Assembly: GCA_003990765.1 (NCBI GenBank) | Contig: RBNJ01000051.1 | Location: 1-46,862 of the forward strand | Reading direction: 5' to 3' | Length of the DNA: 46,862 nucleotides | DNA from: Jimgerdemannia flammicorona | Lineage: Eukaryota | Shown here: positions 5,500 through 40,221 of the stretch, piece after piece | Layout: every line of letters begins with the position of its first letter | How positions within the stretch are numbered: the first letter of the stretch is position 1 | Translations under genes and position numbers: made by a program | Notes under the pieces: generated by a model | Told to the model about the DNA's origin: nothing | The model's input: the letters and a program-made list of their open reading frames with translations, nothing else | Databases searched by the model: none

Positions 5500-6318
5500 T
5501 TAGAGCAGAAAGTTCAAGATTATGGGGGCTTCATCATCATCATCACTGAAGGAGATGATATCCGCGAATTCGTCATGTAGATCACGCATTTCACATACTT
5601 CAGGTATGTCATGCAGGATGACATCATCGATGACATCATCATGTTCGGCTGTGGCAGGGAAATCGGGGACAAGGTCTGGAGCTCTCCAGTCTATGAGGTT
5701 CTCTTCCACAAAATAAGGAACAAATGTAGGGTCTTGGGGAGATCTAACCCGGATGCTTGGGCCTTGGAATACTGAGATTAATCCTTGAAGGAATTGATCT
5801 GGGTTGTCCTGAAGGATAGGGTGCCAGAAGTCTTCTACTTCTTCACTGTTGAGGGTGATAGTGGACTGGGCTTCTGTAGCCACTCTGGCTTCTAGCACAT
5901 TGATTCAGTGGGATGACAGATCTCTGAAGTCTGAAACTCTAACATACTCCAAGTTGGGGATTGACCATGATACATGTCTGAAGATCTGATAGATCTTCTT
6001 AGCTGTCCTCGTTTTGCATATATCCATGAGAGTGGCATCTTGTAGCTCTTGGGTGCTGGTCTCTGGGAACTCCTGGCAAAGGAGGTTTCCTATTTCATAC
6101 TCCTGCCACATTTGGAGGCATTTGGTAGTAATGGTGATCCTTGTTTCCATTTTGTGGTGGTAGAGAATAAAGTGATAAGGGTCTGCAGTACCCAGGTTAA
6201 CACTAGGAGTCCTTCTTGAGCAGGTCCCCATGGCTCTTCTGATATCTTGGAACATCCTTTCCTCAACTGAGATACCTTGGTGATTCCTTGACCTGGAGGT
6301 TTGGCAGGTAGCAGGCAT
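5500..6318 (-). pseudogene. LTR(U3)-encoded ORF of family 1, ~272 aa, unknown function
   Basis: ORFs 5905-6318 and 5500-5898 are in frame, split by one TGA; homologous coding sequence in all five family-1 LTRs; acidic C-terminus. Confidence 0.8.
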
Positions 6319-6560
6319 TTCATTTGTGATAAGTCTTTGAGCTATTTTGGGATTGGTGGTTCTTGTTGGTTGCTGCTACTGCAGTTCTTTGATCCTTCTT
6401 TTATATTCTTCAGGATACTTGTGCTGTGATCACAATAACTCACAGTTAGTCATCATTGCTCATCTTGTATACCATATAATCTTCTTGTGCTTCAATCTGG
6501 TGGCTTGCAAGGAAAGGCTGTCTCCTGTACTAATATCATCCTTCTAAGGTCACCATTATA

Positions 6561-6570
6561 TCTTCCTCCT
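6561..6570 (-). promoter_or_regulatory. Polypurine tract of copy A
   Basis: AGGAGGAAGA immediately 5' of the 3' LTR; equivalent at 16570-16579 in B. Confidence 0.9.
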
Positions 6571-6596
6571 GAATAAGGATCTTCCTGAGCATCCTT

Positions 6597-7002
6597 TTTT
6601 TGTTTTAACAGACTCATGTCCCATGGAATTTTATTGGAAGAGAACCTAGACTATATAGGCCAAAACCCTCCCCCACCACCCACCAAGCACTGCCACCCCA
6701 TTAACCTAGGCTAGCTATTGTCCAGCAGCTCAACTATGCCAGGTGCAGCAGGGCCAATAGGCCCACACCTCATTCTGCACATTATGCTCTCCCTACTACC
6801 AGGGGAAACCCAACCATATGCCAATGACTAAAAGTGCATGCCTGAGAACCCAATGTATGTACAAGGCCATGCCCGAGCCAAATAGAATAGCCCCTGCCAC
6901 CCCAAAGAGAATGACAGGCAAAGAAAAAACCCTCATCAAAGCACAACACAGTGGATAGGGCCTGGTTCTCCCAGTCGAGATGAGTAAAGGACTTACACAT
7001 GA
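6597..7002 (-). mobile_element. 5'-truncated poly(A) retroposon nested in copy A
   Basis: Reverse complement of ~1412-1820; T-rich tail; 16-bp TSD cttcctgagcatcctt (6581-6596)/ctttctgagcatcctt (7003-7018); absent from copy B. Confidence 0.92.
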
Positions 7003-7295
7003 CTTTCTGAGCATCCTTATTCATTGGCCCAGTCCTGAAAAATTTGCTGATCCCATAACCTCTGGCAAAGGGTCGAAAACTAGTGTTTATGGGCTGGCAT
7101 CTTCCCTTTGTATTTTGGTGTGATGGTGAAGGGTTGCTCCCTTCATATAGAGCAAGGGCCTGATTCTGATCTTGACCAATCAGTTGACAGTTCAAACTCC
7201 TTTGACTTCAAAAGTCTCACAGATGAGTAGTTGCCAGTGTCGTTTCCCTTAGAGAATGGTCCAGATAGATAGCCTGCTGGTCACAGAACATGCTG

Positions 7296-8340
7296 TTACA
7301 ATTCACAGACTAGAACCTCACAGGTAGTCATCACATTATACTTTTCTTGTATAGGTTTATGGTACTTCTTGAGTCTGTTCCTATGTACTGTAGTGGGCAG
7401 TATGGTCCCTGAGATTTTTCTAAGCCAGAAGGTAGTTCCCTTGATATCTTGCACATAGAAGGGTTCTTCCCATTTGGGCTCCAGTTTTCATGACCATGAA
7501 GCTTCTACCATATTTCGATACAGTAGAACCTTTTCTCCAATTCAGATGGGTTCTAGAGCCTTGTGATTCTTTTCCACATTCTTCCTTGTCAGTGCTTGTG
7601 ACTTGGTGTAGTCTCTGGATTTCTGCATCAATCCATCTCCAAGTTAGGTCTAGATTTGTGGCTGAGGTTCCATTAGAATCTTCTTCTCTGAAGAGCAGCT
7701 CTCTTGGGGTAAAATGTGTGCTCTGTGACCATATATCTTGTAGGACAGAGAGGGCGGTTGGGAGATAGTTATCCCAATTCTCATATGTCTCTGAGATCTT
7801 CGCTAGGATGTTCTTGAGGGTCTTGTTGGTTCTCTCTATCTGTCCATTTCCTTGAGGGTGGTACACAGTGGTCTTGATGTGCTGGATCTTGTATTTCTGA
7901 TACATTATCTCATGGAATCCATTGATGAATTCCATTCCATGGTCTGTTGTGATTTGCTTTGGTGTCTTGTAGTGGCAGATGATTTCTCGGTGTAGAAAGT
8001 CAGCTATAGAGAGGGCATTGGCTTCTTGTAATGCTCCTGCCTCTATCTATTTGGTGAAGAGGTCTACAATAACTATAATATAGCAGTTTCCTGATAGTGT
8101 TACTGGTAGTGGTCCAATGATATCCATTGTAATATGGTGGAAGGGGATAGGCTCAATTCTTGATGACTCGGGTGCCTGGTCTTGCTGATCTTGTTTCTGT
8201 TTTGGCACTTGTCACACCCTTTGACAAATTGGTGCAGGTCTTCTTCCATCTTGGGCCACCATATGGTTCTTCTTGTCTTGTTATATGTATTAGTTCCTTC
8301 TAAATATCCTTGCTTGTATACTTCCTTCATTACTTGATAC
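7296..8340 (-). pseudogene. Integrase, copy A (no chromodomain)
   Basis: WWPKMEED...CDKCQ, MDIIGPLP, TDHGMEF, YHPQGNGQIERTNKTLK, GPY/F-like KWEEPF. Confidence 0.92.
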
Positions 8341-8599
8341 TTCTTGTATTTGGATATTACTAGCTTTCCTCCTTTTCTGAGTGTAATGTTGTCTAATTCA
8401 AACTGTTTCTAAGTCCAGTTGATGATGGTGATTATCCAGGGTTCAAGGTGGTTGGGCATCTTCCACTGCCTAAGGTAGCTGATTAATCCATAGTATAGCT
8501 CCTTATTCATGTTGAATAGTCTTGATGGGGGTATTTCAGAGTATCCTTGAGAGTGCATTGGCATTGGTGTTGGTCTTTTCTGAGCGGTGCTTAACAGTA

Positions 8600-9740
8600 C
8601 AGTCATACTCTTGCAGTCTGTAGATCGATCTGGCATATATTCCTTTGGGGTTCAGAGTGTGGAATAGTCAGGTGAGAGCAGAATGGTCTGTTTGAATGGT
8701 GAAGTGTTTCCCAGCTAGGTAGTAGTGAAACTTGTCTACTGCCCAGACTACTGCTAAGCATTCAAGCTTGTATGACTCGTAGTTCTGTTCTGCTCCACAG
8801 GTACCTCGGCTTGCATAGGAGATGACATATTTATGTCTATCTTTCTTCTGAGCTAGGACTGCTCCAAGTCCTATAGCACTCGCATCTGTCTGCAGGTTGA
8901 ATTCTAGGTTCCAGTCTGGTCTTCTGAGGATGGGTGCTTAGGTCAACCTGGTCTTGAGTTTATTGAAGGTTTCTTAGTGCTCCTTGGTCCATTCAAATTT
9001 GGCCTCCTTCTTCAGTAGCTCATAGATAGGAGCTGCAATATTGGAGTATCCTTTGATGAATCTCCTATAGTAGCTGCCCAGTCCAAGGAAGGTGTGAACT
9101 TCTGTAGTTGTTCTGGGTCTTGGGTAGGCTGCAACAGCCTCAATCTTCATGGGGTCTGTATGGATTCTGGTCTGGTTGATGAGGTGTCCTAGATAGGCAA
9201 TTTCCTGAGCTGCAAACTTGCATTTCTTGGGCTTGATGTAGAGGCCATACTCCTTGAGCCTCTTGAGGGCTAGCTGGATGTGATTGATATGTTCCCGTAC
9301 TATGTTGCTGAAGATAATTACATTATTGATATAGACAAAGAGCCATTTTCCAATCTCATTGCTGAAGACTCTGTTCATCATTTGCTGGAAACTTGCTGGG
9401 GCATTGCACACTCCAAATGGCATTCACAAGTAGATATAGGTGGCATCAGGTGTAATGAAGGCTGATTTCTCACTGGCATCTTGAGTGAGACTGATCTGAT
9501 GGAAGCCTGAGAACAGATCCAAGATAGTGTAGTATTTGGCTTCACTTCCAAGGGTGGTAAGGATTTCTTGAATATTCAGCAAGGGCTGCCTATCCTTCTT
9601 GGTGATGGCATTGAGTTTCCTGTAGTCAATGCAGAGTCTTGGTGTAAACTCTCCAGGCTTGCTTCCTTTCTTCAGGGCTAGAACAATGGGTGAGGCCCAG
9701 GGGCTGATAGCTTGCTTGATAATTCCAGCTTCTTCCATTT
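8600..9740 (-). pseudogene. Reverse transcriptase and RNase H, copy A
   Basis: SPWASPIVL, RLCIDYRKLN, LDLFSGFHQI, MPFGVCNAPASFQ, YINN (decayed YIDD), QTDASAIGLGAVL, TDHSAL. Confidence 0.95.
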
Positions 9741-10019
9741 CCTTGAGTTCTGCTCGCAGCCACTCTCTATAGGCAGGTGGTATGGGTCTGGCTTTCTGGT
9801 AGATAGGCTTGGTATCACTGGTGTCAACTTTGTGGTAGTACTTGGGTTCTTGATTGTGGATATCTCTAAAGTCTGTAGCAAGTACTCCTTTGTTCTGGTA
9901 CAGGATCTTGAGAAGTTTTTCCTCCAGGGGAAAGTTTTCTCCAATGGTATATATGTATTTGTTCTGGCCCTTGTCTTTCTTGTGCTCAAGTTCAGTAATC
10001 TTGGTGGCAGCATAGGCTC

Positions 10020-10440
10020 CTCTTCCAGTAGATCCAAAGTCTTGTTCTCCTCTCTTGGTCTTGATGAGTTCAATGGCTTCTATGATCTTGGGCTTCTTAA
10101 CTTCATGGATCAGTATCTGGCCAATCCTGTCATGCTTCTTGACTTCAAAGGGGATGGTGTGGTTGTGATTTCTGACTATGAGGAAAATCTTACCAGTGTA
10201 ATCAGGGTTAATTACTCCTCCTTCAACTGAGATTTCGCTTTTGACTAGACTGCTCCTAGTCTTGATAATTCCGGCATAGTTTTCTGGTAACTTGACTCCA
10301 ATTCCAGTGCCAAGTAGGGTGGTGGTCTGTAGTTCGAGGGTAGCATCTTGAATGCTGGCAAGGTCTATTTCTATGGCTCCTTCAGTCTTATATTCTGGGA
10401 TCTTGACTTCAGGGTGAAACTTCTTGACCTTGAGGGTGAT
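10020..10440 (-). pseudogene. dUTPase domain, copy A
   Basis: KVKKFHPE..IPEYKTEGAI.IDL, TGIGVKLPENYAGIIKTRSSL, VEGGVI(D)PDYTG, DRIGQ, (G)FGSTG: trimeric dUTPase motifs I-V. Confidence 0.9.
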
Positions 10441-10564
10441 GTCTGATTCTTGTTCCTCCTCATCATCACTATCAGCTTGAAGCTCTGGGGGCTGGTCATC
10501 CTCTTTGGCTTTCCTTTTTGCTTCGGCAGCTTCTTGCTCATGTTTCTATTGGTGGATTTTCCTG

Positions 10565-10680
10565 ACTTCACTGATACAGGACCAGTAGTCATTCAGGTGT
10601 TCAGAGTAGTACATTCTAGTACCATGGGGACATCTTCCTTGAGGGGCATAGCCATCAATGATCTTGTTGTACCACTGCTT
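10565..10680 (-). other. C-x-H-x12-C-x2-C putative zinc-binding module, copy A
   Basis: Consensus of A/B/C: EQWYNKIIDGYAPQGRCPHGTRMYCSEHLNDCWSCISEV. Confidence 0.7.
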
Positions 10681-10789
10681 CTGTGAGCTTGGGTGTCTTG
10701 TTCTTGTTCTTGTTCACTGAGTGCATGAAGACCTCTATGTCTTCTTCATTTCCTTCCTCCATATCTGGTAGGACTCCTTTGTGGACTTT

Positions 10790-11150
10790 GATAGAGACTT
10801 GTACCTTTCTTCCTCTATAGTTGATCTGTATCTTCTGGGCATTGAGGTAAATGATGGCCTTGGCCTTATGAAGCCATTGGTTGCCAATGAGGATGTCATA
10901 GTTGGTGGCGCTTGTAACAATCATGTCTACTAGAATGGTAGCTCCTCCTATCTTGATGGGGACTTCTCAGATTTTGCCAAGGGGGGTAGCTTGTGTACTG
11001 TCTGCTGTGACATAGACTATCTTGGTGGACTCATCAATATCCCAACCTAGGTGGTCAATTGCCTTCTTGCTCATGAGGCATCCTCCAGCACCAGTATCAA
11101 TGATGGCATCAAAGATACAGTCTTTGATCTGGTAGGGGGTATAGGCTGAT
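10790..11150 (-). pseudogene. Aspartic protease, copy A
   Basis: DAIIDTGAGGCLMS and YDILIGNQWL motifs. Confidence 0.9.
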
Positions 11151-11295
11151 GTCTTATGCTGGTCTTCAGATTCTTTACCTGAGTTCTCGGGTTCTTCCTG
11201 TACATTGTGAGCTTCTACAATTTATACTCTTGATTCTTGGCAGTAGTTGCAAGTCCTACTCTCAACTGCAGACTGAAGGGAGGGACTTCAGCTAG

Positions 11296-12525
11296 CTATC
11301 TAAAAGTGGCATTGACCTTCTGTTCCTTGAGGTCCTTGTAGATGTCATACTGGTGGATCTTGGTCTTGCGCAGCTTCTGTTCTTTCTTGCTTTCACTTTC
11401 TTCTGAGACTGGAGTAGTGCCTTCAATAATTTGGCAGACAGCTTCATCTAACTCCATGTCTTGATCAATCTCCTTGGGTTGGGTCTTGCTTTGAATAGTG
11501 ACAGCTGGGGTCTTCTTTGGTCTTCCAACCAGCTTGCTGTTGCTCTTCTTATCATAGGGCTTGGACCAGGTTCTGGTACCTTCAGTAGCAGGGTAGAATT
11601 TGAGTTCCTCATAGTATTCTTCATCATCAGTATCACCAATCTCCTCAATGACTACTGCATTGGTTTGTTCTCTAGTTCTGCTAGCATTGCTTGATTGGGC
11701 TTTGCATCTTGTTTTGGTCATACAACTCTTTGCATAGTGGCCTTCTTCTTCACATCTGAAGTATGTAATATTGCATTCTTCTGTAGTAGCTGCAAATCTC
11801 TGCACTGGTCTCCTGTTGGCACTTTGGACTTCTCTAACAACATCACCAAGATGTGCAGTCATCTTAGCAAACTGCTTGGCAAGTTCTTCCACTGGGTCAG
11901 CTTTGGCTGTCTTGGGGGTAGGTGGGATTGGTTGTCTGTTTACAACTGTGACAGGTAAGATACTAGTTGGCTTTGATGGCTCCATCTTGATGCCAGTTAT
12001 TTTCTCCATTGAGTGTTTGGCAGGGTGTCTGGCTGTCCAATATCTCTGTGCAAAGACCACTTTCTGATCAAGGGTCAGTGCAGCTGGGGTAGACTGGATT
12101 GCTAGAGCAATTTCAGGGTGAACTCCTTTGAGGAAGGTTGAATCCACTATTTGTTCCTTGAGGCAGTCATCATAGCCAGCCAAGACAATCTGGTGGCAAA
12201 TTCAGATATAGAATGAGTTGGGATCTTTACTAAGTCTCTGGCAGATAGTTTTGAGTTGATCCTTGAGAGCTTGCTTGATCTCTTTGGTATAATATGTTGT
12301 TCTGAGGAAGATCTTCATGTTGGTAAGTTTGGCTGCACCAGCATCAGCAATGGTGGCTGTATTGAACTTGTCTCTGGCAGATCCTCTAAGGCTGACTGGT
12401 AGAAGGGCCAATTGAGCATCTACACCAAGGGCTTGTATGACAGCAAATTGTTCAAAGTCTTCAATGAAGGTCAGGATTGACTCTTCAGTAGTATATTTAT
12501 AGAATGTGGGGGGACACATTTCCAT
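11296..12525 (-). pseudogene. Gag with decayed CCHC knuckle, copy A
   Basis: PPTF...FIEDFE...SLRGSARDKF capsid-like region; ITYFRCEEEGHYAKSC. Confidence 0.85.
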
Positions 12526-12624
12526 CTTGTCTTGAATTCTTGCAGGGGTGACTCTTGTAGTCAGAGTAGTTGTTGTGGGGGTTGTTCGTTTTTCAGCTTA
12601 AAAGTGAGGGATTCATCTTGAATC

Positions 12625-12642
12625 ACCAGCCAATGGGCACCA
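12625..12642 (-). promoter_or_regulatory. Primer-binding site of copy A
   Basis: TGGTGCCCATTGGCTGGT, 3 nt after the 5' LTR; conserved in B (22247-22264) and decayed in C (33815-33832). Confidence 0.85.
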
Positions 12643-12645
12643 AGT

Positions 12646-14183
12646 TGTCATGTAGTGGTCGCTGAGTCCTTCAAATATGCCAGATTCTCTTCAAGGTATA
12701 TCTCTTAGACTAACTCAAGTTTGTTATAAGCAAGTTCTTATTGGAGTGCCTTCCCAAGATCTTATAGTCCTCAAACTTCTTATCTTTAACTATCTTGTTA
12801 TCTCTTAGATTGCTTGCAAGGAAGTGTGTGTAAGTGAAACTGGAACTGACTTTATTTCAGAGGAAATAAGAGGGGTATTTATACAAAATATAATTCAATG
12901 GTTGCTAAGATATAAAGCTAAATATAAATTCCATTAACTAAAACTACTAAGTTCCAGGGCTGGCTTTGATAGTTGTACAGGTTCAGGATGCTGACATTAT
13001 TTAGTATCACATCAAAATGCCGGTGCTGGAACAATTTTGCATCACCTCAGAATACCAGTGCTGGCATTATCCAGTGTTATATGAGAATACCGGTGCTGGC
13101 ATTATCCAGTATAACAAAGAACTTAGAGCAGAAAGTTCAAGATCATGGGGGCTTCATTATCATCATCACTGAAGGAGATGAGATCTATGAATTCATCATG
13201 TAGGTCACATGTTTTGTATACTTCAGGTATGTTGTGCGGGATGACATCATCAATGATGTTATCACATTCGGCTGTGGTGGGGAAATCAGAGACAAGGTCT
13301 GGAGCTCTCTAGTCTATGAGGTTCTCTTCTACAAAATAAGGAACAAATGTGGGGTCTTGGGGAGATCTAACCCAGATACTTGGGCCTTGGAATACTGAGA
13401 TCAATTCTTGCAGAAATTAATCTGGGTTGTCCTGAAGGATAGGATGCCAGAAGTCTTCTACTTCTTCACTGTTGAGGGTGATAGTGAACTGGGCTTCTGT
13501 AGCCACCCTGGCTTCTAGCGCATTGATTTGGCAAGATGACAGGTCTCTGAAGTCCAAGACTCTAACATACTCCAAGTTGGGGATCAACTATAGTGTATGC
13601 CTGAAGATCTGATGGATCTTCTTAGCTATCCTCATTTCGCATATATCCATAGGAGTGGCATCTTATAGCTCTTGGGTGCTGGCCTCTGGGAACTCCTGGC
13701 AGAGGAGGTTTCCTATTTCATACTCCTGCTACATTTGGAGGCATTCGGTAGCAATGGTGATCCTTGTTTTCATTTTGTGGCAGTAGAGAATAAAGTGATA
13801 AGGGTCTGCAGTACCCAGGTTGACACTAGGAGTCCTTCTTGAGCGGGTCCCCATGGCTCTTCTGATGTCTTGGAACATCCTTTCCTCAACTGAGATACCT
13901 TGGTGATTCCTTGACCTTGAGGTTTGGTGGATAGCAGGCATTTCATTTATGATAAGTCTTTGAGCTATTTAGGGATTAGTGGTTCTTATTAGTTGCTGCT
14001 ACTGTGGTTCCTTGATCCTTCTTTTATATTCTTCAGGATGTTTGTGCTGTGGTCACAATGACTCACAGTTGGTCATCATTACTCATCTTGTATACTGTAT
14101 GATCTTCTTGTACTTCGATTTGGTGACTTGCAAGAAAAGGCTGTCTCCTGTGCTGATATCATCATTCTGGGATCACTATTACA
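12646..14183 (-). repeat. 5' LTR of copy A (1538 bp), with U3 ORF remnant
   Basis: Plus strand tgtca...ttaca; adjacent to the PBS; TATAAA at ~12877-12882 (minus). Confidence 0.95.
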
Positions 14184-14357
14184 ATATATATCAGAGAAAT
14201 ATAAAAGATAACAATACTTACATATTGGTAGATAACAATTTCTCTATTTTTCTATTAATAATAATATAAATATTTTATATGTATCTTCTCACTTCAAAAT
14301 ATGTACAGACTTTATAGCTTCTCTATTTTGAGTTTTTCTTTTTCAAAGACTTTATAT

Positions 14358-14977
14358 ATATTTACTAACTTTATAAGATAAATATGAATTTCTATTCTAT
14401 TTATCTTGTTAAAGTGAAATCTTTAATCAGAATATTGTATAATTCTACTATAATGTCAATTAACAGCTGAGCAAATTATCATTATAGTTAAATACTATAA
14501 TTTTAAATAAATAATATAATAATTTAATTAATAAAATATTAAATAAACAAATCATACTTACTATTCTATCTTAGTAGTCTAATATATTATCTTATTTATC
14601 TATCTTGTCTAAAAAATGATATTATTGAAATATATATATAAAAATATCTAAAAGTGTTCTTGTTGTTATAATATTATAATTGAATATCTAATCAAAGAGC
14701 TTGTTATATCTTTTTGCTTAAAATTCTTTATATATTCTAAATTCTAAATATATTTAAAAAAAAAAAATTTATAAATATAAATCTCTTTATAATTATTTAG
14801 TTTAATTATTATTTATATTTAATATTTAACTTATATATTGAGTAAGAATATGTGAAGCAATATTATGAATCTATTCTCATACTATATAGTAAGCATAGTT
14901 AAATCTAATAGCTTTTCTAGAATTCTCAAAAATAGCTTCTGTAAGAATTGCATCAGAATATAGAGTATTTTGTCTAT
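14358..14977. repeat. AT-rich duplicated sequence, copy 1 (continues at 23775-24053 after element B)
   Basis: Inverted match to 31327-32231. Confidence 0.85.
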
Positions 14978-16569
14978 TGTTATATAGTGGTCGCTGAGTC
15001 CTTCAAATATACCAGATTCTCTTCAAGGTATATCTCTTAGACTAACTCAAGTTTGTTATAAGTAAGTTCTTATTGAAGTACCTTTCCAAGGTCTTATAGT
15101 TCTCAAACTTCTTATCTTTAAACTGTCTTGTTATCTCTTAGATTGCTTGCAAGGAAGTATATATATTGTACTGAGAGAGACTGACTTTATTTCAAAGAAA
15201 ATAAGAAGGGTATTTATATAAAATATATATAATTCGATGGTTGCTAAGATATAAAGCTAAATATAAATTCCAATAACTAAAATAAAATGCCAGAACAGGA
15301 AAAACTGCTAAGTTCCAGAGTCAGCACTAATGGTTGTATAGGTTCAGGATGCTGGTATAATTTTGGTAGTACAGAAAAATGGTGCTGGAATAATTCAGTA
15401 TTACATCAGAATACTAGTGCTGGCATAATTTAATATTATATCAGAATGCCAGTGCTGGTATAATTCAGTGTAACCAAAGGACTTTTAGAGTAGAATGTTC
15501 AAGACCATAGGGGCTTCATCCTCATCAGAGGTCAGGATATCTTCAAAGGAGATGAGGTCCACAAATTCATCATTATTACATAGGTTATATATTTTATATA
15601 TATCATACATCTCATGTATGTCACATGTGATGATGTTATCGCCAATGATGTCATCATGTTTAGCAGCAGCAGGAACAAGGAGGTCTGAGGCTCTTCAGTC
15701 TATGAGATTTTCTTCTACAAAATAGGAGACAAATGTGGGATCTTGGAGAGATCTGATCTGGATACTTGAGTCTTGGAATACTGAGATCAATCCTTGCAGG
15801 AATTGGTCTGGGTTGTCCTGGAGGATGGAATGCCAGAAGTCTTCTACTTCATCACTATTGAGGATGATAGTAGACTGGGCTTCTGTAGTCACCCTGGCTT
15901 CTAGTGTATTGATATAGTGGGCTGACAGGTCTCTGAAGTCTGAGACTTTAATATACTCCAAGTTGAGGATTGAGCATAGTGTATGCCTGAAGATCTGATA
16001 GATCTTCTTAGCTGTCTTTGTTTTATATATATCTATAAGAGTGGCATCTTGTAGCTCTTGAGTGCTGGCCTGTAGAAACTCCCAGCAGAGGAGGTTTCCT
16101 ATTTCATACTCCTGCCACATTTGGAGGTATTCAGTAGCAATGGTGATCCTTGTTTCCATTTCATAGCAGTAGAGAATGTAATGATAAGGGTCACCAGTAC
16201 TCAGGTTGACACTAGGAGTCCTTCTTGAGTGGGTCCTCATGGCTCTTCTGATGTCTTGGAACATCCTTTCTTTGACTGAGATACCTTGGTAATTCTTTGA
16301 CCTTGAGGTTTGGTAAGTAGCAGGCATTTTGTTTATAGTAAGTCTTTGAGCTATTTTGGGATTGGTGGATCTTATTGGTTGCTGCTACTGTGGTTTCTTG
16401 ATCCTTCTTTTATATTTCTCAAGATACCCATACTGTGGTCACAATGACTCACAGTTGGTCATCATTGCTCATCTTGTATACCATATAATCTTCTTGTACT
16501 CTGATCTGGTGGCTTACAAGAAAAGGCTGTCTCTTGTACTGATGTCATCATTCTGGGGTCACTATTACA
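14978..16569 (-). repeat. 3' LTR of copy B
   Basis: tgtta...ttaca, adjacent to the PPT; contains the 210-aa open stretch 15695-16327. Confidence 0.95.
15485..16327 (-). pseudogene. U3 ORF in copy B
   Basis: 210 aa uninterrupted, reading through the stop seen in A; continues into the acidic tail. Confidence 0.8.
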
Positions 16570-16882
16570 TCTTTCTCCTAAATAAGGATCTTCTTGAATG
16601 TCCTTGTTCATTGGTCTAGTCCTGAAAAATTTGCTGATCCCATAACCTCTGACAAGGGGTCAAAAAGTGGTATTTATGAGCTGGCATCTTCTCTTTGTAT
16701 TTTGGTGTAATGGTGAAGAGTCACTCTCTTCATATAGAACAAGAGCTTGATTCTGATCTTGACCAATCAGTTGATGGTTCAAACTCCTCTGGCTTCAAAA
16801 GTCTCATGGATGAGTAGTTGCTGGTGCTATATCTCTTAGAGAATGGTCCAAACAGATAGCCTACTAGTCATGAAATATACTG

Positions 16883-22152: not shown

Positions 22153-22267
22153 TCTTGAATTCTTGCAGGGATGACTCTTGTAGTCAGGGTAATTGTTGTG
22201 GGGTTTTTCATTTTTCAGCTTGAAAGTGAGGGATTCATCTTGAATCACCAGCCAATGGGCACCAAGT

Positions 22268-25254: not shown

Positions 25255-25538
25255 CCAGATGATAGTAGTGACAATAGTGATAATAGTGACAATGGTAATA
25301 ATAGTAATAAGAAAGAAATAGAGTATTATAATGGTAAAGAGACAGAGGATCAAAATATATTTAGACAGATAGTAGAGACTAATAATAACAGATAGTAGAT
25401 ATAATAGATAATAATAATAATAATAATACTAAATATAGTAACAGCAGTGATGGATATATTGATAAGTTTGAGGCAGATAGATATATTGATAAGTTCAAGA
25501 AAGATAGGTATATTGATGAGTTTGGTGCAGATAGGTAC
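25255..25538. repeat. Low-complexity tract and 28-bp tandem repeat (x3)
   Basis: (gatagtagt/gacaatagt)n and (aat)n; gatatattgataagtttgaggcagatag units at ~25452-25538. Confidence 0.7.
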
Positions 25539-29904: not shown

Positions 29905-30660
29905 GGTAAAAGTACACCATAGGGACCACTACTTCCCTGACCACTACTCCAGTCTTCAGAGCCTCATCAAGTGGGCCTGCCTCCTCAAAGCCCACTTCAA
30001 TACCCTCAAGACTCTTCAGGAACTTCACCAAAGTGGCCTCAGCCACCTGCTTTGAGATAAGCCCCAGAACCATCCTTGCCATCACTGCCAAGCTTCAGAA
30101 GTACAAGGTAGCCACATACTCCAAGATTGACTTCTTGAGCAATGGTGCTTCTGCCAGCCCCATCATACTATCTGCCAGATCCCCCTTCTGCATCAGGAAC
30201 CCCTGTCCCACCTTGTCATCAGCCATTACATCTCTTTTTTTTTTCTAATTCCCTGTCATACTCCTATCAGTAGTCTCACCTCCAGCCATAGCACCTCTAG
30301 CCCCTATACTTACATCCCTCACCTGGGTACTGCCTCTCCTACCAATAGTAGCCTTGTCCTTCCCCTCAGCAGCACCAGCTCTTGCTCCAACCAGCCATCC
30401 ACTTTCCTTCACCTTGTCTGCAAAGCTAGGGAGGCCAGACCTTCCCCTATTTCCACTCAATACCAGTCCTCCTCCAGAGCCCTCTCTACCCTTCAACCCT
30501 CCAAGACCCCCATCTCCAGGCCATAACCTCTCCCCACATACTGCCTCAGATCTATCTGATCCAGCATACTCATTAGAACTTTTACTCAATGATATTTTTA
30601 TAGTACCTTTTCTCTGAGTTGGATTGAAAACTGTTGCTTGAAGTTGGTGTAATGTGAATT
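29905..30660 (-). mobile_element. 5' end/ORF1 of putative LINE, subfamily b
   Basis: Homologous to 46431-46862 from the same start point; Gly-rich N-terminus with SFADKVK. Confidence 0.65.
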
Positions 30661-31326
30661 ATACAGGAGAAAGGTAGTGATGGCCACCTGCTTAGTAATA
30701 AGCCCTAGCATCATTTTCACTATTACTGCTAGACCCTGGAAGTACAGCATAACTACAAATACCAAGATCAACTTTTTGAGTAATGGGGCTACCATCAGGC
30801 CCATCACACTATCTGCCAAATTCCCCTACCTTTCAAGCCCCAACTGCTCAGCCTTGCCATCAGCAGTTACATCTGGATTTTTTTCTAGATTGGCAGTCCT
30901 GTCACCATCAGCTATCACATTCACCCCAGCTACTACACCCCCAGCTCTACTGCTCCCACCACCAAGGGCTACTCCTCTATGTACTGCCACCTTCTCCATA
31001 TTCTTGCCTTTTCTCAGCCACCCCTCCAGTCCAGACACCTGCTGTCTCTCTTTCACTATCTCTGTAAAGCTCACTCTTCCCAACCCCTGTCCTCTACCAC
31101 TGCTTTCTTCCCTTCTGTATCCTCCTGCCAGCAGCTCCCTCATATTTCCCCCCAGGTCAGGGCCTCTCTCCACATGCTGCCAGTTGAATGTACTTGAGTC
31201 ACTCTGCTCAATATGTACCTCAGATTGCCTATCAGTCATTATGTTGCTAGTCTCTTTTCTCCAAGAACAATATTGTAAGTACTTTCCAAAGATTATGTAA
31301 CCTAAATGATACTAGAGAAAGATGTG
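30661..31326 (-). mobile_element. 5' end/ORF1 of putative LINE, subfamily a
   Basis: Same start (catctttctct...) and homology as 37143-38172. Confidence 0.65.
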
Positions 31327-32231
31327 AGATTTTCTTCTTCTATATAATGATTATGGATTTGCTACTAATCATGGATTTAATACTAATTATGGATTTGCTA
31401 CTTATATGGATTTGCCACTGATCAAAAAATTAGTTATTAACAACTGATCTCAAAAATTGAAAATAAATAAATATAGACTAAGACAGATATTTATTATTTT
31501 TATATATTTTAGATCAAAAATATACATCATACTTCTGATTTTGTTGTACAAAAACTACTTGAAGAAGAGCAGACTATAGTTAGATGAGATCTTTTAGATA
31601 ATGAAGTTAAGATTGCAGAATAAGATATATTTAATAGATAAAATATATTATATTCTGATACAATTCTTATAGAAGCTATTTTAGAGAATTCTAAAAAAGC
31701 TATTAGATTTGACTATGCTCAATATGTAATATGAGAAGAGATTCATAATATTGCTCTATATACTCTTACTCAATATATAAGGTAAATATTAAATATAAAT
31801 AATAATTAACTCAATAATTATAAAGAGATTTATTTTTATATAATTTTTTTTTTTTTTTTAAATATATTTAGAATCTGAAACATATAAAGAATTTCAAGCA
31901 AAAAATATATAAAGAGCTCTTTGATGAGATATTCAATCTCAATATTATAATAGCAAGAATACTTTTAGATATTTGAATATAAATATATTTCAACAATGTG
32001 ATTTTTTAGACAAGACAGATGAATAAGATAATATTTTAGACTATCAGGATAGAACAGTGAGTATAATTTATTTATTTAAAATTATAGTATTTAACCAAAA
32101 TAATAATTTGCTCAGCTGTCAGTTGATATTATAGTAGAATTATTCAATATTCTGATCAAAGATTTCACTTTGATTCTCTGTAAGATAAATAGAATGAAAA
32201 TCTATCTTTATCTTATAAAGTTAGTAGATAT
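31327..32231. repeat. Inverted copy 2 of the AT-rich duplicated sequence, containing the empty site for element B and an 18-bp tandem repeat at ~31350-31420
   Basis: Reverse complement joins 14358-14977 directly to 23779-24053 with a single ctat; decayed reading frames with gt..ag intron-like gaps (e.g. ~31782-31871). Confidence 0.85.
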
Positions 32232-33811
32232 TGTAATAGTGACCTCAGAATGATGATATCAGTACAGGAGACAGCCTTTTCTTACAAGCTACCAGATCAG
32301 AGCACAAGAAGATTATACAGCATTACTTACCCAGACTATAAAAAAAGCAATAATGACTAACTGTAAGTCATTGTGACTATAAGACAGACATCTTGAGGAA
32401 TATAAAAGAAGGATCAAGAAACTAATAGCAGCAATTCAAACAAGACTCATAGAAATAGTTCAAAAGACTTATTATAAATAAATGTCTGCTGCTTACCAAA
32501 CCTCAAGGTCCAGGAACCACCAAGGTCTCTCAGTCCAGGATAGGATGTTTCAAGACATCAGAAGAGCCATGGAGACCTACATAAGAAGGACTCCCAGCCT
32601 CAACCTGGGTACTAGTGATCCTTATCATTATATCCTCTACTGCTATGAAATGGAAACAAGGATCAACATTACCACTAAATACCTCTGAATATAGCAGAAG
32701 TATGAAATAGGAAATCTCCTCTGCTGGGAATTCCCTCAGGCCAGTCTCCAAGAAATATAAGATACTACTCCCATAGATATATATAAAATAAGGACAGTGA
32801 AGAAGATTCATTAGATCTTTCGACATACACTATGGTCAATCTCTAACTTGAAGTATACTAGAATCTCAGACTTCAAGGAACTATTAGCTTGCTGCACAAA
32901 TACATTGGAGACCATGGTGGCCACAGAAGTCCAGTCCACTATCACCCTCAATAGTGATAAAGTAGAAGACTTCTAGTATCCTATTCTCTAGGACAATCCA
33001 GATCAATTTATACAAAGATTGATCTCAGCATTCTAAGGCCCCAGCATCTAGGTTAGATCTCCCCAAGACCCCACATTTATTCCTTATTTTGTAGAAGAGA
33101 ACCTCATAGACTAGAGAGCTCTAGACCTCCTTACTCTCTCTACTGCTAAATGTGATGATATCATTGGCAATGATATCATCCTGCACAATATGTACATAGT
33201 ACACAAAATGTGTGATAAATATAATGAGATAGACAAAACATTCACAGATCTCTTTTCCTTCAGCAGTAATGAAGATGAAGCCCCCATGATCTTGAATATT
33301 CTGCTCTAAGATTCTTGGTAATACTGAAATCTTCTGACATCCTTTTTATGTGTAACTGAGTTCTACCAGCATCCTTTTTCTATGATATCTGAATCTTTGA
33401 GCACTCTTTTCCTATACTACCAAAATCTACTAGCATCCTAAACTTGTGTAACCATTTGTATAGATACTCAAATTTGTACTTATAATCATAGTTTTCTGTA
33501 TTCTAGTATTTTATTTGGTTATTGGAATTTATATTTAGCTTTATAACTTAGCAATCATTGAATTATATTTTATATAAATACTCCTCTTATTTCCTTTGAA
33601 ATAAAGTCAGTTCCAGTTCACTTATACTCAATTCCATATAAGCAATCTAAGAGATAATAAGACAGTTTAAAGATAAGAATTTTGAGGACTATAAGATTTT
33701 AGGAAGGTACTCCAATAAGAACTTACTTATAACAAACTTGTGGTTAGTCTAAGAGATATACCTTGAAGAGAATCTGATATATTTGAAGGACTCAACAACT
33801 ACTACATGACA
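32232..33811 (+). repeat. 5' LTR of copy C, with U3 ORF remnant 32482-~33310
   Basis: MSAAYQTSRSRNHQG...; TATAAA at 33573-33578, AATAAA at 33600-33605. Confidence 0.92.
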
Positions 33812-36800
33812 ACTTTGTGCTCATTGACTAGTGATTTAAGACAAATCCCTCACTTTCAAGCTGAAAAATGAACCACTACCACAATAACTACTCTGACTAC
33901 AAGAGTCACCCCTGCAAGAATTCAAGATAAGATAAAAATGCATCCCTACACATTCTATGGATATACTACTGAAGAGTCAATCCTGACCTTTATTGAAGAC
34001 TTAGAATAATTTGCTGTCATATGAGCTCTTGTCATGGATGTACAATTGGTCCTTCTACCTGTCAGCCTCAGAGGACATGCCAGAGATAAGTTTAATGCAA
34101 TCACAATTGCTAATACTGATGAAGCCAAACTTGTCAACATAAAGACCTTCTACAGAACTACATACTATATTAAAGAGATCAAGCAAGCTCTCAAGATCAA
34201 CTCAATACTATCTGTCAGAGACTTAGTAAAGACTTCAACTTATTCTACATCCAAATCTGCCACTAAATTGTCTTGGCTGACTATGATGATGCCCTTAAGG
34301 AACAAATAGCTAATTCAACCTTTGTTAAAGGAGTTTACTCTGAAATTGTCCTAGCAATTCAGTTTACGAGATATTGAACTGCCAGACACCCTGCTAAATA
34401 CTCAATGGAGAACATAACTGGCATTAAGATAGAGCCATCAAAGCCAACCAGTATCATACCCACCATAGTCATAAACAGACAACCCTCCCCACCTACTCCT
34501 AAGATAGTGAAAGCAGATCCAGTGGAGGAACTCACCAAGCAGTTTGCCAAGATGACTGCATATCTTGGTGATATTATTAGAGAAGTCTGAAGCACCAACA
34601 GGAGACCAGTATAGAGATTTGCAGTTGCTATAGAAGAATACAATATCACATACTTCAGATGTAGAGAAGAAGGCCACTATATAAAGAGTTGCATAATCAA
34701 AACAAGATGCAAAGCCCAACTAAGCAATACTACTAGAACCAGAGAATAAACCAATATAGTAGTCATCAAGGAGATTGGTAATACTGATGATGAAGAATAT
34801 TATAAAGAGTTCGAATTCTACTCTATTACTGAAGGTACCAGAACCTGGTCCAAGCCCTATGACAAGAAGAGCAACATCAAGCCAGTTGGAAGACTAAAGA
34901 AGACTCCAGTTGTCACTATTCAAAGCAAAACCCAACCTGAGGAGATTGATCAAGACATGAAGTTAGATGAAGCTGCCTACTAAATTATTAAAGGCACTAC
35001 TCCAGTCTCAGGAGAAAGTGAAAGTAAGAAAGAACAGAAGCTGCATAAGACCAAGATCCACCAGTATGATATCTACAAGGATCTCAAGGAACAGAAGGTC
35101 AATACTACTTTTGAACAACTAGCTGAAGTCTCCACCTTCAGACAGCAGTTGAGAGTAGGACTTGTAACCACTGTCAAGAACCAAGAGTACAGGATTGTAG
35201 AAGCTCACAAGGCACAAGAAGAATCTGAAGACTCAGGTAAAGAATCTGAAGATAAGTACAAGATATCAGCCTATACTCCATGTCAGATTGAAGATTGTAT
35301 CTTTGATGCCATCATTGATACCAGTGTTGGAGGATACCTCATGAGCAAGAAGACAATTGACTGCCTAGACTGGGATATTGAAGAGTCTACCAAAATGGTC
35401 TATGTTATAGTAGATGATATATGAGCTACTCTCTAGGTAAGATCCAAGAAGTTCCCATCAAGATAGAAGGAGCTACCATTCCAGTAGATATAATTGTTAT
35501 AAGTATCAGCAACTATAACATCCTTATTGGCAACTAATGGCTTCACAAGGCCAAGGCTGTCATTGATCTCAATGTCCAAAAGATGCAGATCAACTATAGA
35601 GGAAGAAAGATACAAGTCTCCATCAATGTCCACAAAGGAGTACTACTAGATATAGAGGAAGGAGATGAAGAGGACACAGAAGTCTTCATATACTTAGTGT
35701 ACAAGAACAAGAGCAAGACACCCAAGCTTATAGATGAGCAGTGGTACAACAAGATCATTGATGGCTATGCCCCTCAAGAAAGATACCTCCATGGTACTAG
35801 GATGTACTGCTCCAAATATCTGAATGACTGCTGGTCATATATCTGTAAAGTCAGGAAAATTCATTAATAAAAGTATGAGAAAGAAGCTGCTGAAGCAAAA
35901 AGGAAAGCTGAAGAAGATGACCAGCCCCCAGAGCTTCAAGCTGATAGTGAGATAATGAGGAGGAATAAGAACCAGACATCACTCTCAAGGTCAAGAAGTT
36001 TTACCCCAAAGCCAAGATTCCAGAATATAGACTGAAGGAGTCATAGGAATGGACCTTGCCAGTATTCAAGATACTATCCTTGAACAACAGACCACTACTC
36101 TACTTAGCACTGGAATTGGAGTCAAGTTGCTAGAGAACCATACTGGAATTATCAAGACCAGGAGCAGTCTGGCCAAAAGTAAAATCTCAGCTGAATGAGG
36201 AGTAATTGACTCTAATTATACTGGCAAGATCTTCCTCATAGTCAGGAATCACAACCTCACCACCCTATTTGAAGTTAAGAAGTATGATAGAATTGGCCAG
36301 ATGCTGATCCATGAAGTCCAGAAGCCTAAGATTACTGAAGTCATCAAACTCATCAAGACTAAGAGAGAACAAGGCTTTGGATCTACTGGAAGAGGAGTCT
36401 ATACTGCCACCAAGATTACCAAACTTGAGCAAAAGAAAGATAAAGACCAAAACAAGTACATATATACCATTAGAGAAAACCTTTCCCAAGAAGGACAACT
36501 TCTCAAGATTCTATACCAGAATGAAGGAGTACTTACTACAGACTTCAGGGACATCTACAATCAAGAACCCAAGTACTACTATGAGGTTGATACTAATGAT
36601 ACCAAGCCTATCTACCAGAAAGCCAGGTCTATACCACCTGCCAACAGAGAATAGCTATAAGCAGAACTCAAGAAAATGGAAGAAGCTGAAATCATCAAGC
36701 AAGCTATCAGTTCCTGGGCTTCATACATTGTCCTCACCCCAAAGAAAGAAAGTAAGTCTGGAGATTTTGCACCATGACTCTGCATCAATTACAGGAAGCT

Positions 36801-37142
36801 CAATATAATCACCAAAAAGGATAAACAGCCCTTGCCAAATATTTAAGAAATTCTTACTACTCTTGAAAGCAAAGTCAAATACTATACTATCTTAGATCTG
36901 TTCTCAGGCTTTCATCAGATTGGTCTCACTTAAAATATCAGTGGAAATCAGCCTTCATTATACCTGACATCACATATGTCTATCTGCAAATACCATTTGG
37001 AATGTGTAATACCTCTGTAAGTTTTTAGTAAATAATAAACAGAGTCTTTAGCAATGAGATTGGAAAATAGCTCTTTGTCTATGTTGATGATGTAATCATC
37101 TTCAGCAATACTATATGGGAATATATCAATTACATACAGCTA
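32232..37142 (+). mobile_element. Ty3/Gypsy family 1, copy C (5' LTR to mid-RT, interrupted)
   Basis: LTR 32232-33811 (tgtaa...tgaca), PBS, gag, PR (IIDTSVGG), Zn module ~35735-35855, dUTPase ~35985-36392, RT with YVDD at 37080-37091. Confidence 0.95.
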
Positions 37143-38172
37143 CATCTTTCTCTGGTAATATTCAGGTTATACAACCTTTTGGCAGTACTTTCAACACAGT
37201 TTCTGGAGAAACGCTACTAGTATCATAGCAACTGATAAGCATTCTGAGGTGCATACTGGACAGGGTGGCCTGGGTACATTTGACTGACAGTATGTGAGGA
37301 GGGGCTCTGGCTTGGGGGGAAGTATGAGGGGCCTGCTAGCAGGTGGACATAGTAGGGGAGAGGGCAGTACTGGAGGTCAGAGAACAGAGAGGGTGAGCTT
37401 TATAGACAAGGTGAGGTCAGCAGAGAGCTGGGCTGGAGGGCTGGCTTAGAAGGTGCAAGGAGATAGTGAAAACTGCAGGGCAGTAGCCTCAAGAGGGAGT
37501 CTTTCTGGGGGGCCAGAGTAGTGGGGCTGGTAGTGTAGAGGCTGAGGGGGTAACTACTGATGGGAGCATGATAGGTAATCAGGAAAAAAATCTAGATAGA
37601 ACTGCTGATGGTGGACCAAGAAGTGGGAGAGGTATGAGGTCTAGTAATCTGGCTAATAGTGTAATAGGACTAGCAGTGGCACCATTACTCAAGAAGTTGA
37701 TCTTGGAGTTCACAGTTGCCTTATACTTCCAGGGCTTAGTAGTGATAGTAAAAATTGTCCTGGGGCTGATTGCTAAGCAGGTGACTGGAGCAGTATCTGT
37801 GAAGTTTCTGAAGGGACTAGAAGGAGTGAAGGTTGGCTTTGAGGAGGCTGGAACATTAGAGGAGGCTCTGAAGGCAGGGTTGACAGTTGGAGAGGTAAGT
37901 GTTCTGATAGCACATTGCTTGAGGTGGGACTCCAGGGTGGTGCAGTTATTGGTAAATGGGGTGCCCATAGTGACCACTGAGAAGATAAGGAGGAGAGTTG
38001 TGGAAGTCATGACTGAGTATAGTGAGGTAGTAAATGTTGGATTCTAGGTCTGAGAGGGGACCTCTTTCAGTACTGGGGATGTTGATGTTCAAATTCAGTT
38101 GGCAGGGAAGAAAGCTACTAGAAAGGCTAGGAACTGGCCTTCAGTAATGGTCTGGGGGGCTTTCTTGTATAA
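37143..38172 (+). mobile_element. 5' end/ORF1 of putative LINE, subfamily a, inserted in copy C
   Basis: Homology with 30661-31326; ORF 37568-38047; interrupted by the LTR of D. Confidence 0.65.
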
Positions 38173-40221
38173 TGTAAGAGAGTTACTTGTTATTGTAACT
38201 ATTATGTAGTTCTCTGGAAGTTCTGGATGTTCTGGAAGACCGTTTTCTCAAGGTCAAGATCAATTTCATATGGAGTATGTCCTCTATACTTATTGATTTC
38301 AAGATCGGGTTGATGTCTTAACCAAAGTCCTTTTTTTGAACTAGTTCTGAATATTTAGGAGTTTCCATATTTCAGGAAGTTCAAGAAACTAAGACAAGCT
38401 TAGTTGAATTGGTATATTGCTACAGACAATATCCAATTAGGAAATTTTGTAATGGGGTTAGAAGTGGGACCTAATGGGGAGCAGATTTACTTAAGAGTAG
38501 TTTGTAAGTTATTAAATAGATTTATTTGCTATTCATGATATTACTATACTAGAAGTAGTTGTGTGAAGGAGTATTGTGAGAAAGTGCTCAGGAATGTTCT
38601 TATATATTTGAGTCTGAGATTCTGAGGTCTGGGGGAGGGAGTATTTATACCAGTGAGGGGCTATCTGGGCTATGCTGAATATAGATGTAGCACTTAGTGC
38701 CTTGCTGAGTCAGAATGCAGTCATGCAGTATAAGTGTGATCTGATATGTCAAGAGATTGTCTGACTGCTGAGTCAGTTCACAGTTATATCATACAAGGCT
38801 AATCTAACTATACTATGACTGCTAAGCTATTTATAGCTTTAGACACTGTCTGGATAGTTTTTGATGACATCACTATCAATAACATTATCTCTGATGAAGT
38901 AGTCATTTAGAAAGAGTTGTTCACAGATTAATTCTCTCTGTTTGCTGAGGTAATAATATATTGAGACTTCATCACCATCTGACAGGATAGCATCATCTGT
39001 CTTATATGCTAAGTATGGAGTTGGTAGGCAAAGGAGGGGTGCATCATCTTTGCTTTCCTCGGATTTGCTGTCTGCATATCTTTTATAAGTTATGGCACTA
39101 TGAGTTGCTGGATTGTAGTAAGCTAGTGGCTGTAGTTCATGTTGCTTGTACTCAGATGGCAGAGTTGTTGGTTCAATCTCAAGAGTTGTCTGAAGGTACA
39201 GGTTGTGTTCTCCAGTCTCTTCATTATAGTTAAAGTAATCAGGGGTGAATGTGGACTAGTACTCATGCCAGTGGTCATTGTTCCAATAAGTTTCATAAGT
39301 GGTTATGAACTGTTGTAAGTTCATCAGCAGGATTGGTAGAGTGATCAGGGTTGACAGGGATCCTTAGCTTGAGGTCATATTGGTGTCAGAGAGATCATTG
39401 TCTTCTGCTTCATCTTCATCAAATCAGATTATATCATAGATATCCTTCATAGTGTATCTGACTTGAGGCATTTGCAAGATATAATCATTGGGGTGTAGGA
39501 AGGTTCTGTCTGTGGTCTGAACATATTTGAGGTACTTTTTGTATTATATCATTGATTTGGCCATAGAACAGAGTAGCAACCATTTTAGTAGTAATAACTC
39601 AGAGGTGGGGGATAATAGTACTATACTCATAGAAGAGTTCTTGATGTTTCCAGGCAATGAGTTTCTGGTGTTGAGACATCTGGGTAATATCTATATCATG
39701 ATGGTGTTTGACTATGTCTTTCTGGAGGCAGCTAATCTGGTAGTAGCTTGAGATTTATCCAATTTGGTGAACTTTGCTAAGTAAGTTCAGGGCATTCTAT
39801 CAGGCTTTCACAAAGTAGAGAGGTGCTAAGCTATGGATATTCATAAGGGACAGAGGGGGTGTGGCTCAGTTGATAATAGCATTCCAAATGTCAGCATAGA
39901 TGTGGTTGTAGATCTTAGTGGTCATATTTATATATGTTCAGAAGTTATAGTTATTTGTTTGGTTTGTTTTAGTTCTCTGTTTCAATGCATCTTAGTACTC
40001 AGTATATATACATTTGGTCCTGATTGGTAAGATTCTGTTTGTGTAAATCTTGTATTCTGTGACTTCATATTGACTCAGCTTTGTGTGCTGTGACTTTGGT
40101 TTGACTCAGCTTCGTGATCTTGCAGATGATTTCCAGATTTGTTCAGAGGTCACATGTGATTTCAGTGGCTTGTTCTGAAGGTGACATATGATTTCAGTAA
40201 CTTGAAGGTTGTGGGCTTACA
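38173..40221 (-). repeat. 3' LTR of D (2049 bp)
   Basis: Terminal inverted repeats tgtaag...cttaca; adjacent PPT; TATAAA at ~38643-38648 (minus); homologue at 25539-26760. Confidence 0.88.
38839..39925 (-). pseudogene. LTR(U3)-encoded ORF of family 2, ~360 codons
   Basis: MTTKIYNHIYADIWNAII...ISSYYQI(G)CL...LIA(R)KHQELFYEYSTIIPHL...DNVIDSDVIKNYPDSV*; transition-type stops and one frameshifting deletion near 39540. Confidence 0.72.

Follow-up and report, generated by a model that had tools for sequence, protein, structure and literature searches.

Complete genes within the U3 region of a long terminal repeat (LTR) are known from a few complex retroviruses, and genes inside LTRs are a textbook trait of these viruses, not of LTR retrotransposons. 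The sag open reading frame (ORF) of mouse mammary tumour virus (MMTV) lies wholly inside the U3 of this betaretrovirus LTR, the foamy virus genes Tas and Bet are served by an internal promoter, and nef of the human and simian immunodeficiency viruses (HIV and SIV) overlaps U3. LTR retrotransposons with coding capacity beyond gag-pol have also been described, including the additional ORFs (aORFs) of plant elements, for which the accessible part of PMC7264820 has no wording that locates them in an LTR, and the ORF3s of rotifer elements, typically expressed via spliced messages according to the part of PMC5408684 available to us. Herein, we describe a 46,862-nt stretch of DNA from Jimgerdemannia flammicorona (contig RBNJ01000051.1, positions 1 to 46,862 of the forward strand; hereafter the window), in which a sense ORF of 272 codons is found inside the LTRs of a Ty3/Gypsy retrotransposon family. 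We consider it probable that the window holds a nest of Ty3/Gypsy elements, old and decayed by transitions, that belong to two distantly related dUTPase-bearing families, termed families 1 and 2, and that the LTRs of family 1 carry a self-contained accessory gene unit.

An initial annotation of this DNA had proposed that both families encode a homologous protein in U3, based on three aligned sequence blocks, and that this protein forms a shared cassette with a dUTPase and a zinc module. It had further held that an in-LTR gene is not a standard feature of fungal Ty3/Gypsy elements, and this agrees with our phrase searches, which returned mostly MMTV; no paper among those listed describes, by its title or the start of its abstract, an ORF within the LTR of such an element. 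One fungal paper does use the term 'LTR ORF', by which pol ORFs were meant.

Family 1 is represented by five LTRs of 1.5-1.6 kb that start with TGTAAT. The polypurine tract (PPT) AGGAGGAAGA comes before them, and TTGGTGCCCATTGG, which resembles a primer-binding site (PBS), comes after. The sense ORF is present in all five and begins ~240-250 nt into the LTR. Its best-preserved copy in the window is that of L1a, the 3' LTR of element 1 (5022-6560, minus strand, with the PPT AGGAGGAAGA in front), where it runs from 6318 to 5500 on the minus strand, comprises 272 codons and a stop, contains one internal TGA, and is 88% identical to the intact protein P0001. L1b, the 5' LTR of the same element (12645-14183, minus strand), holds the ORF at 13123-13941 with five internal stops. 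The two LTRs of element 2, likewise on the minus strand, are L1c (3' LTR, 14977-16569), with the ORF at 15485-16327, and L1d (5' LTR, 22267-23774), with the ORF at 22736-23531 and a 47-nt deletion. L1e, the 5' LTR of element 3 (32232-33812, plus strand), carries the ORF at 32482-33309, interrupted by nine internal stops.

Comparison with relatives shows that the family-1 ORF is a genuine accessory gene of 272 codons that was formerly maintained by selection, rather than a chance ORF. A protein search identified six relatives at E<=0.01, with 57-88% identity, among 383 candidates; these lie on short contigs from two sources of public environmental data. A family-1 profile matched five of 1,835,955,588 representative proteins, three of them more distant, such that intact relatives span 27-88% identity overall, and an alignment of 12 sequences with 27-80% identity to the first (A3) contains strongly conserved blocks. 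With five representatives the family is small, and we found no support for the suggestion in the initial annotation that the protein resembles abundant helical proteins of Glomeromycota. DNA was recovered for two of the relatives, L001 and L002 (85 pattern matches, of which two were confirmed). Compared with the window copies, these have proportions of synonymous differences (pS) of 0.70-0.76, indicating saturated synonymous sites, and proportions of nonsynonymous differences (pN) of 0.28-0.41, and the differences are most frequent at third codon positions, followed by first and then second positions (138/98/64 in one example). All ORF comparisons used natural sequences, with X at stops, and not a transition-corrected consensus. 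Within the LTR, conservation is highest in the ORF core, at 65-78% identity versus 25-40% downstream. Of the in-frame stops, which total 20 across the five copies, 18 can be traced by a C>T or G>A change to a sense codon that another copy retains, and indels in the ORF are all multiples of three except for the 47-nt deletion. Because of the relatives, the pS and pN values, the codon-position pattern and the decay-type stops, we conclude that the ORF was once functional and under purifying selection. Two observations weigh on the other side. Every copy of the ORF in the window is dead, and when dN/dS within the window was phased by LTR pairs into pre- and post-insertion change, the omega values of 0.29 versus 0.39-0.51 were not clearly separated, NG86 with strong transition bias yielding ~0.4-0.5 even for post-insertion decay.

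LTR elements often acquire their accessory ORFs by capture, as in a rotifer case described in the accessible part of PMC5408684, and the ORF found here could in principle be a fragment of a host gene carried as a passive passenger with no role in the element. We regard this as very unlikely: no non-element relatives were found, there being only five representatives in 1.84 billion proteins, no Pfam family was matched, and both loci with readable DNA look like LTR or element context. In addition, lineages that are 27-80% identical have been under purifying selection, which speaks for a function in the element.

The gene is accompanied by signals on either side. A TATA box, TATAAAAG (TATA1), lies 65-87 nt before the ATG and is intact in four of the five window LTRs as well as in L001 and L002, with L1d reading TTTAAAAG; it occupies 6398-6405 in L1a, 87 nt upstream of the ATG, and 14021-14028 in L1b (both minus strand). 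In an alignment of the five window LTRs with L001 and L002 (A4), TATAAAAG and the leader AAGACT..A..AAA..ATGCCTGC form invariant columns across the seven sequences, except for TTTAAAAG in L1d, so that box and leader are retained even in L002, whose protein is 43% identical. Downstream of the ORF stop are three 35-nt tandem repeats (12989-13099 in L1b and at the same place in the other family-1 LTRs), followed by a second TATA motif, GTATAAATACCCC (TATA2), with AATAAA 26-27 nt later in four window LTRs and in L001. In L1b, TATA2 is at 12873-12883 and AATAAA at 12851-12856 (minus strand). In L1a, TATA2 has decayed to TGTAAATACC, with AATAAA 27 nt later (5228-5260, minus strand), and the same pair is also seen in L001. 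The layout of the tandem repeats before TATA2 is like that of an enhancer.

We infer that TATA2 is the genomic promoter of the element, and it is because TATA2 is read in this way that the ORF is counted as part of U3. TATA1 and the conserved leader would then constitute a dedicated promoter that drives the ORF, with the resulting transcript running through the tandem repeats and the presumed element promoter GTATAAATACCCC to be polyadenylated at the LTR's own AATAAA signal, while genomic RNA would be initiated from the second TATA. On such a model each LTR, even a solo one, could produce the protein with no need for gag-pol. The weakness of this model is that promoter use, the U3/R boundary and expression are all deduced from sequence. 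If TATA1 were instead the genomic promoter, the ORF would be the first cistron of the genomic RNA within a very long R/U5 leader. The strong conservation of TATA1 and its leader is compatible with such an arrangement, the start site being placed by sequence alone, but it appears improbable: R would need to be ~1.1-1.2 kb long, TATA2 together with the AATAAA 26-27 nt later and the upstream tandem repeats resembles a standard U3/R junction, and in L002 the module lies upstream of the PPT and the LTR start, where it cannot be R.

The arrangement in L002 also bears on the origin of the unit that we propose for family 1. The stop codon of its ORF is followed immediately by AAGGAGGGAGGAT and then TGTAATAAG, a close match to the junction in the window, AGGAGGAAGA followed by TGTAAT, and the 375 nt upstream of the ORF hold the same TATA box and leader with no LTR start. 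The L002 gene therefore appears to sit just upstream of the PPT and LTR start, outside the LTR. Because the L002 module ends at the PPT/LTR start, if this junction is real, we infer from this one contig that the module of TATA box, leader and ORF is older than its position in the LTR, and that it may have entered U3 when the PPT/LTR boundary shifted. That the argument depends on a single contig of 1535 nt counts against it. The same contig contains a 33-nt direct repeat (170-202 and 1481-1513, 82% identical), with one copy ~125 nt upstream of the ORF TATA and the other ~220 nt inside the LTR-like sequence that follows the ORF; this may be a shared regulatory site, or chance.

In family 2, two LTR copies were identified that are 73.8% identical over 1216 nt (25556-26760 versus 40172-38972; self-BLASTN). 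L2b, on the minus strand, was traced from a TGTAAG start at 40221, after the PPT AAGAAGGGGAGAG, as far as TATA2 (GGTATAAATACTCC, 38641-38649), and has a TATA-like box, TATATATAC, at 40002-40010; its ORF runs from 39925 to 38839 (~362 codons), with an 11-nt deletion near 39520 and internal stops. L2a (25539-26760, plus strand) has a start decayed to TATAAG and an ORF from 25796. The two copies begin at the same base, L2b after a PPT and pol and L2a after an unrelated satellite that it interrupts, and this common start amid different upstream sequence marks the 5' boundary of the LTR. The TATA-like box of family 2 lies 180-210 nt into the LTR, the ATG 78-85 nt after the box, and GGTATAAATACTCC ~190 nt past the ORF stop. 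An intact partial relative, P0016 (247 aa), has 58% identity over 99% of the query, which was the C-terminal 226 codons of L2b, or about two thirds of the ORF; used as a query itself, P0016 returned only P0016 among 81 candidates. Over this C-terminal part, L2a and L2b differ at 42/32/65 sites by codon position, with transversions at 3/5/22, while the N-terminal part has a weaker coding pattern (33/21/42).

Together, these comparisons show that family 2 has a gene with a coding signature, placed in the LTR as the family-1 gene is. The sense U3 ORF reported for both families thus stands as an in-LTR ORF with a coding signature upstream of a conserved TATA/AATAAA pair, its location in U3 following from how TATA2 is read. 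Several points weigh against the N-terminal portion of the family-2 gene. The three aligned blocks all fall in the first 113 codons; these have stops at four positions common to both copies, P0016 starts at a Met right after them, and they may be non-coding. A shared stop is also present at codon 227, where P0016 has Q, so shared stops do not prove that a segment is non-coding; the N-terminal part is nonetheless less secure as coding sequence.

L2a is cut at 26760 by a G-rich insert with a LINE-like (long interspersed nuclear element) reverse transcriptase (RT) domain (26761-~29948, plus strand; RVT_1, E 2.3e-21), and ~1.1 kb of LTR found in L2b (38972 to 37879) is missing at L2a. Both family-2 LTR copies are followed by a C/T-rich repeat of 440-730 nt, which also occurs ~730 nt upstream of the family-2 gag. 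Its four copies are at 29949-30673 and 30685-31325 on the plus strand and at 37878-37143 and 46862-46426 on the minus strand, three of them ending in the PBS-like TTGGTGTAAC..TGAAT and then the PPT-like AGAGAAAGATG. It may belong to a leader or to a very long LTR, or it may represent a deletion derivative.

With respect to the coding backbone, both families have a gag CCHC knuckle and a protease (PR)-RT-RNase H-integrase arrangement in which integrase follows RNase H (Pfam), as in Ty3/Gypsy elements (Metaviridae). The order in family 1 is gag(CCHC)-PR-dUTPase-RT-RNase H-integrase, and that in family 2 is gag(CCHC)-dUTPase-PR-RT-RNase H-integrase-SH3-chromodomain, the chromodomain and the Tf2-type SH3 being detected in family 2 only. 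The two families are distant lineages, with their predicted dUTPases on opposite sides of PR. Their RT/RNase H regions are 34-42% identical and their dUTPases 34% (43/127). The zinc modules in the window are nothing beyond the usual CCHC knuckle of gag and H2C2 of integrase, which, along with the differing position of dUTPase, weakens the proposal of a shared cassette. In the accessible part of PMC2864245, fungal chromoviruses are reported with dUTPase before PR or between PR and RT (PosPlaTy3 of Postia, Phanerochaete, and Tmt1 of Tuber), and independent dUTPase acquisitions among fungal elements are inferred. The legend to Figure 3 of that paper mentions an 'add. ORF' of unknown function.

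On the relationship between the two LTR proteins we lean slightly towards common descent, which is unproven by ordinary standards; this estimate reflects weak similarity combined with a shared LTR architecture. The family-1 profile aligned with the N-terminus of L2b at 10.5 bits (HMMER), collinearly from profile position 18-143 to residues 6-129, and recovered all three blocks; this score was matched by 0/300 and 1/5000 shuffles, and the reversed sequence scored -1.8. An hhalign comparison of family 1 with the L2b copy alone spanned 119 columns at 15% identity (P 0.021, probability 2.3%). Among the 2112 windows of a six-frame scan, the best matches outside family-1 LTRs fell in the L2b ORF, on the correct strand and in the correct frame. 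In the reciprocal direction, a profile of the two family-2 copies beat shuffles for the family-1 proteins P0008 (0/1000), P0010 (1/1000) and P0019 (0/1000), of which P0008 and P0010 are close relatives. The architecture is also alike, with 150-210 nt between the LTR start and a TATA-like box, an ATG 65-87 nt after the box and a downstream TATA2 motif, GTATAAATAC(C/T)CC, in both families. With pol identity as low as 34-42%, similarity in an accessory gene of common descent should lie close to the detection limit.

The alternative, that the two ORFs are unrelated, were gained independently in the same permissive U3 niche and share the three blocks by chance, has a substantial though lesser chance of being correct, and a series of negative results speaks for it and against homology. 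There was no nucleotide match between the five family-1 and two family-2 LTR copies at E<=1e-10 (self-BLASTN), as the initial annotation had noted. The best BLASTP match between the families had an E value of 0.16, on an alignment other than the three blocks, and alignment-versus-alignment hhalign gave probabilities of 1.0% (E 0.054, 13 columns) and 0.09%. The family-1 profile did not retrieve P0016 among 1.84 billion representatives; L2a scored -0.9 bits, with 70/300 shuffles as good, and the C-terminal part of L2b (202/300) and P0016 (245/300) were likewise at shuffle level. The six-frame match in L2b had an E value of 0.26, and the two-copy profile failed for three of the six family-1 proteins tried, namely P0002 (no score), P0001 (524/1000) and P0017 (106/1000). 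Residues 136-212, the best-conserved core of the family-1 protein, lack a significant counterpart in family 2, and the differing dUTPase positions, in conjunction with the independent acquisitions inferred in the accessible part of PMC2864245, fit separate histories. Independent gain is harder to reconcile with the collinear alignment of the L2b N-terminus, reached by only 1/5000 shuffles, with the rank of L2b as best non-family-1 match in the scan, and with the same spacing of LTR start, TATA and ATG and a near-identical second TATA motif, and undetectable accessory similarity is what common descent would predict at this level of pol divergence. The basis for a fold comparison is a family-1 model with a mean predicted local distance difference test score (pLDDT) of 51 and a family-2 N-terminus that exists only as two decayed copies.

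Collectively, the in-LTR genes are real, and the homology of the two and the cassette are not established. The three blocks are present in the translations and were recovered by HMMER and hhalign, at marginal significance; within the earlier reconstruction, a G (AGC/GAC) and an R (TGG) are inferred residues, and 'HASW' reads 'HAPW' in intact relatives. Homology was not confirmed, the profile alignment not being significant and the weak collinear signal coming from one family-2 copy.

Among the five full-length family-1 proteins checked, the N-terminus is basic, with a net charge of +5 to +8 over the first 40 residues in four and +1 in P0019, and precedes a predicted helical core and an acidic C-terminal tail studded with hydrophobic residues, whose last 70 residues contain 20-22 D+E versus 2-4 K+R. 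Acidic C-terminal regions were found in both families by residue composition, as originally reported, and the acidic C-terminal half is the only one of these features that family 2 shares. Of five proteins scanned, four matched no Pfam family at E<=1 and the fifth gave only a chance-level match to GAE_BBS1 (E 0.23); there was no PDB sequence match at E<=10, and a protein atlas offered no informative neighbour. Neither Pfam nor PDB sequences placed the protein in the sag, nef or bel/bet families. As the AlphaFold 2 model was poor (mean pLDDT 51) and VIA-align against 48,161 chains gave none with Z>=5 (best 4.8, single long-helix matches only), no fold was assigned. Because of the basic N-terminus, the helical core and the strongly acidic, hydrophobic-studded tail, we offer the tentative and rather doubtful suggestion that the protein might be a nuclear regulator of the LTR promoter or of host silencing.

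Self-BLASTN and LTR alignment delineated three family-1 elements. The family shows paired LTRs opening with TG, with the 3' LTR preceded by a PPT and the 5' LTR followed by a PBS; in family 2, the 5' boundary and the PPT are the only such marks found. Element 1 (5022-14183, minus strand) has LTRs that are 91.2% identical and an internal region (6561-12644) encoding gag CCHC, PR, dUTPase, RT, RNase H and integrase (Pfam). Element 2 (14977-23774, minus strand) has LTRs that are 84.3% identical and the 4-bp sequence ATAG at both flanks, and element 3 (32232-37142, plus strand) is cut at 37142, inside RT. The internal region of the family-2 element runs from 46862 to 40222 on the minus strand, encodes gag CCHC, dUTPase, PR, RT, RNase H, integrase, SH3 and chromodomain, and continues past the window edge. 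Between the integrase and the PPT of element 1 is a 414-nt insert (6600-7013, minus strand) that is absent in element 2; ~400 nt of it match 1419-1818 (plus strand) at 88% in inverted orientation, and it is a small dispersed repeat. The flanks of element 2 (14358-14978 and 23775-24033) have an inverted match of 75-81% to 31398-32231, just upstream of the element 3 LTR, so the family-1 elements sit within copies of another repeat. AT-rich satellite-like arrays with a GC content of 0.25-0.29 are found at 2000-5000, where a unit of ~123-169 nt occupies 2487-4821, and at 24200-25537, where a different short unit lies upstream of L2a. Six-frame Pfam scans found no host genes in the flanks. Truffle-like traits in the literature, namely Gypsy together with Tad1 LINEs and methylation (PMC12581995), amount to a resemblance and no more.

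Decay is dominated by transitions. The observed/expected CpG ratio across the window is 0.06, which is strongly depleted, and 176 of the 280 copy-private changes in family-1 LTRs are C>T or G>A. These changes extend to CpA, CpC and CpT contexts, and identical stop codons arise independently between family-1 copies, for instance at codons 71, 93 and 211; codon 211 is a stop in three of the five copies, among them just one of the two LTRs of element 1.

If the family-1 LTRs do carry a self-contained gene unit, the ability to express protein could persist in solo LTRs, as a rule far more numerous than full elements, and the length and conservation of LTRs in such families would gain a coding explanation. 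Retrotransposons of heavily methylating hosts may then carry regulators or counter-silencing factors, and, if the arrangement in L002 holds, a PPT shift would be a concrete route from an internal accessory gene to a U3 gene. In annotation, LTR ORFs of this kind probably end up masked as repeats or labelled 'hypothetical protein', the name used by one source for these proteins. A broader and more speculative proposal, which we think unlikely as a whole, is that a clade of dUTPase-bearing Ty3/Gypsy elements has a self-promoted accessory gene predating the split of families 1 and 2, which was captured by the LTR through a PPT shift in some lineages and made autonomous genes of LTRs, solo LTRs included, its product acting as an LTR activator like Tas or Tat or as an antagonist of methylation-based silencing by the host. 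Such a gene would be the retrotransposon equivalent of the regulatory genes of complex retroviruses.

Among known systems, MMTV sag is the closest in layout, as it is likewise a complete sense ORF inside the LTR and hence present once per LTR. It differs in belonging to a vertebrate retrovirus and in being unrelated in sequence, and the window protein combines a basic N-terminus with an acidic tail and, by eye, has no membrane segment. Foamy virus Tas and Bet and HIV/SIV nef resemble the window gene as accessory genes of the 3' end; the promoter-like element of its own and the acidic C-terminus, which would fit an activation domain, recall this group, and the 33-nt motif of L002, before the ORF TATA and again in the following LTR, recalls shared activator sites. 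These genes differ in that they have no homology to the window gene, which lies entirely inside the LTR rather than overlapping it and whose promoter is a predicted one. As far as the accessible parts of PMC7264820 and PMC5408684 allow, plant aORFs and rotifer ORF3 are like the window gene in being lineage-specific extra ORFs beyond gag-pol whose function is not known, and the L002 ORF, between pol and the 3' LTR, is located as they are; the window ORF is unlike them in lying inside the LTR with its own TATA. Finally, the dUTPase-bearing fungal chromoviruses, as described in the accessible part of PMC2864245, share with the window both the Ty3/Gypsy backbone and the two arrangements of dUTPase.

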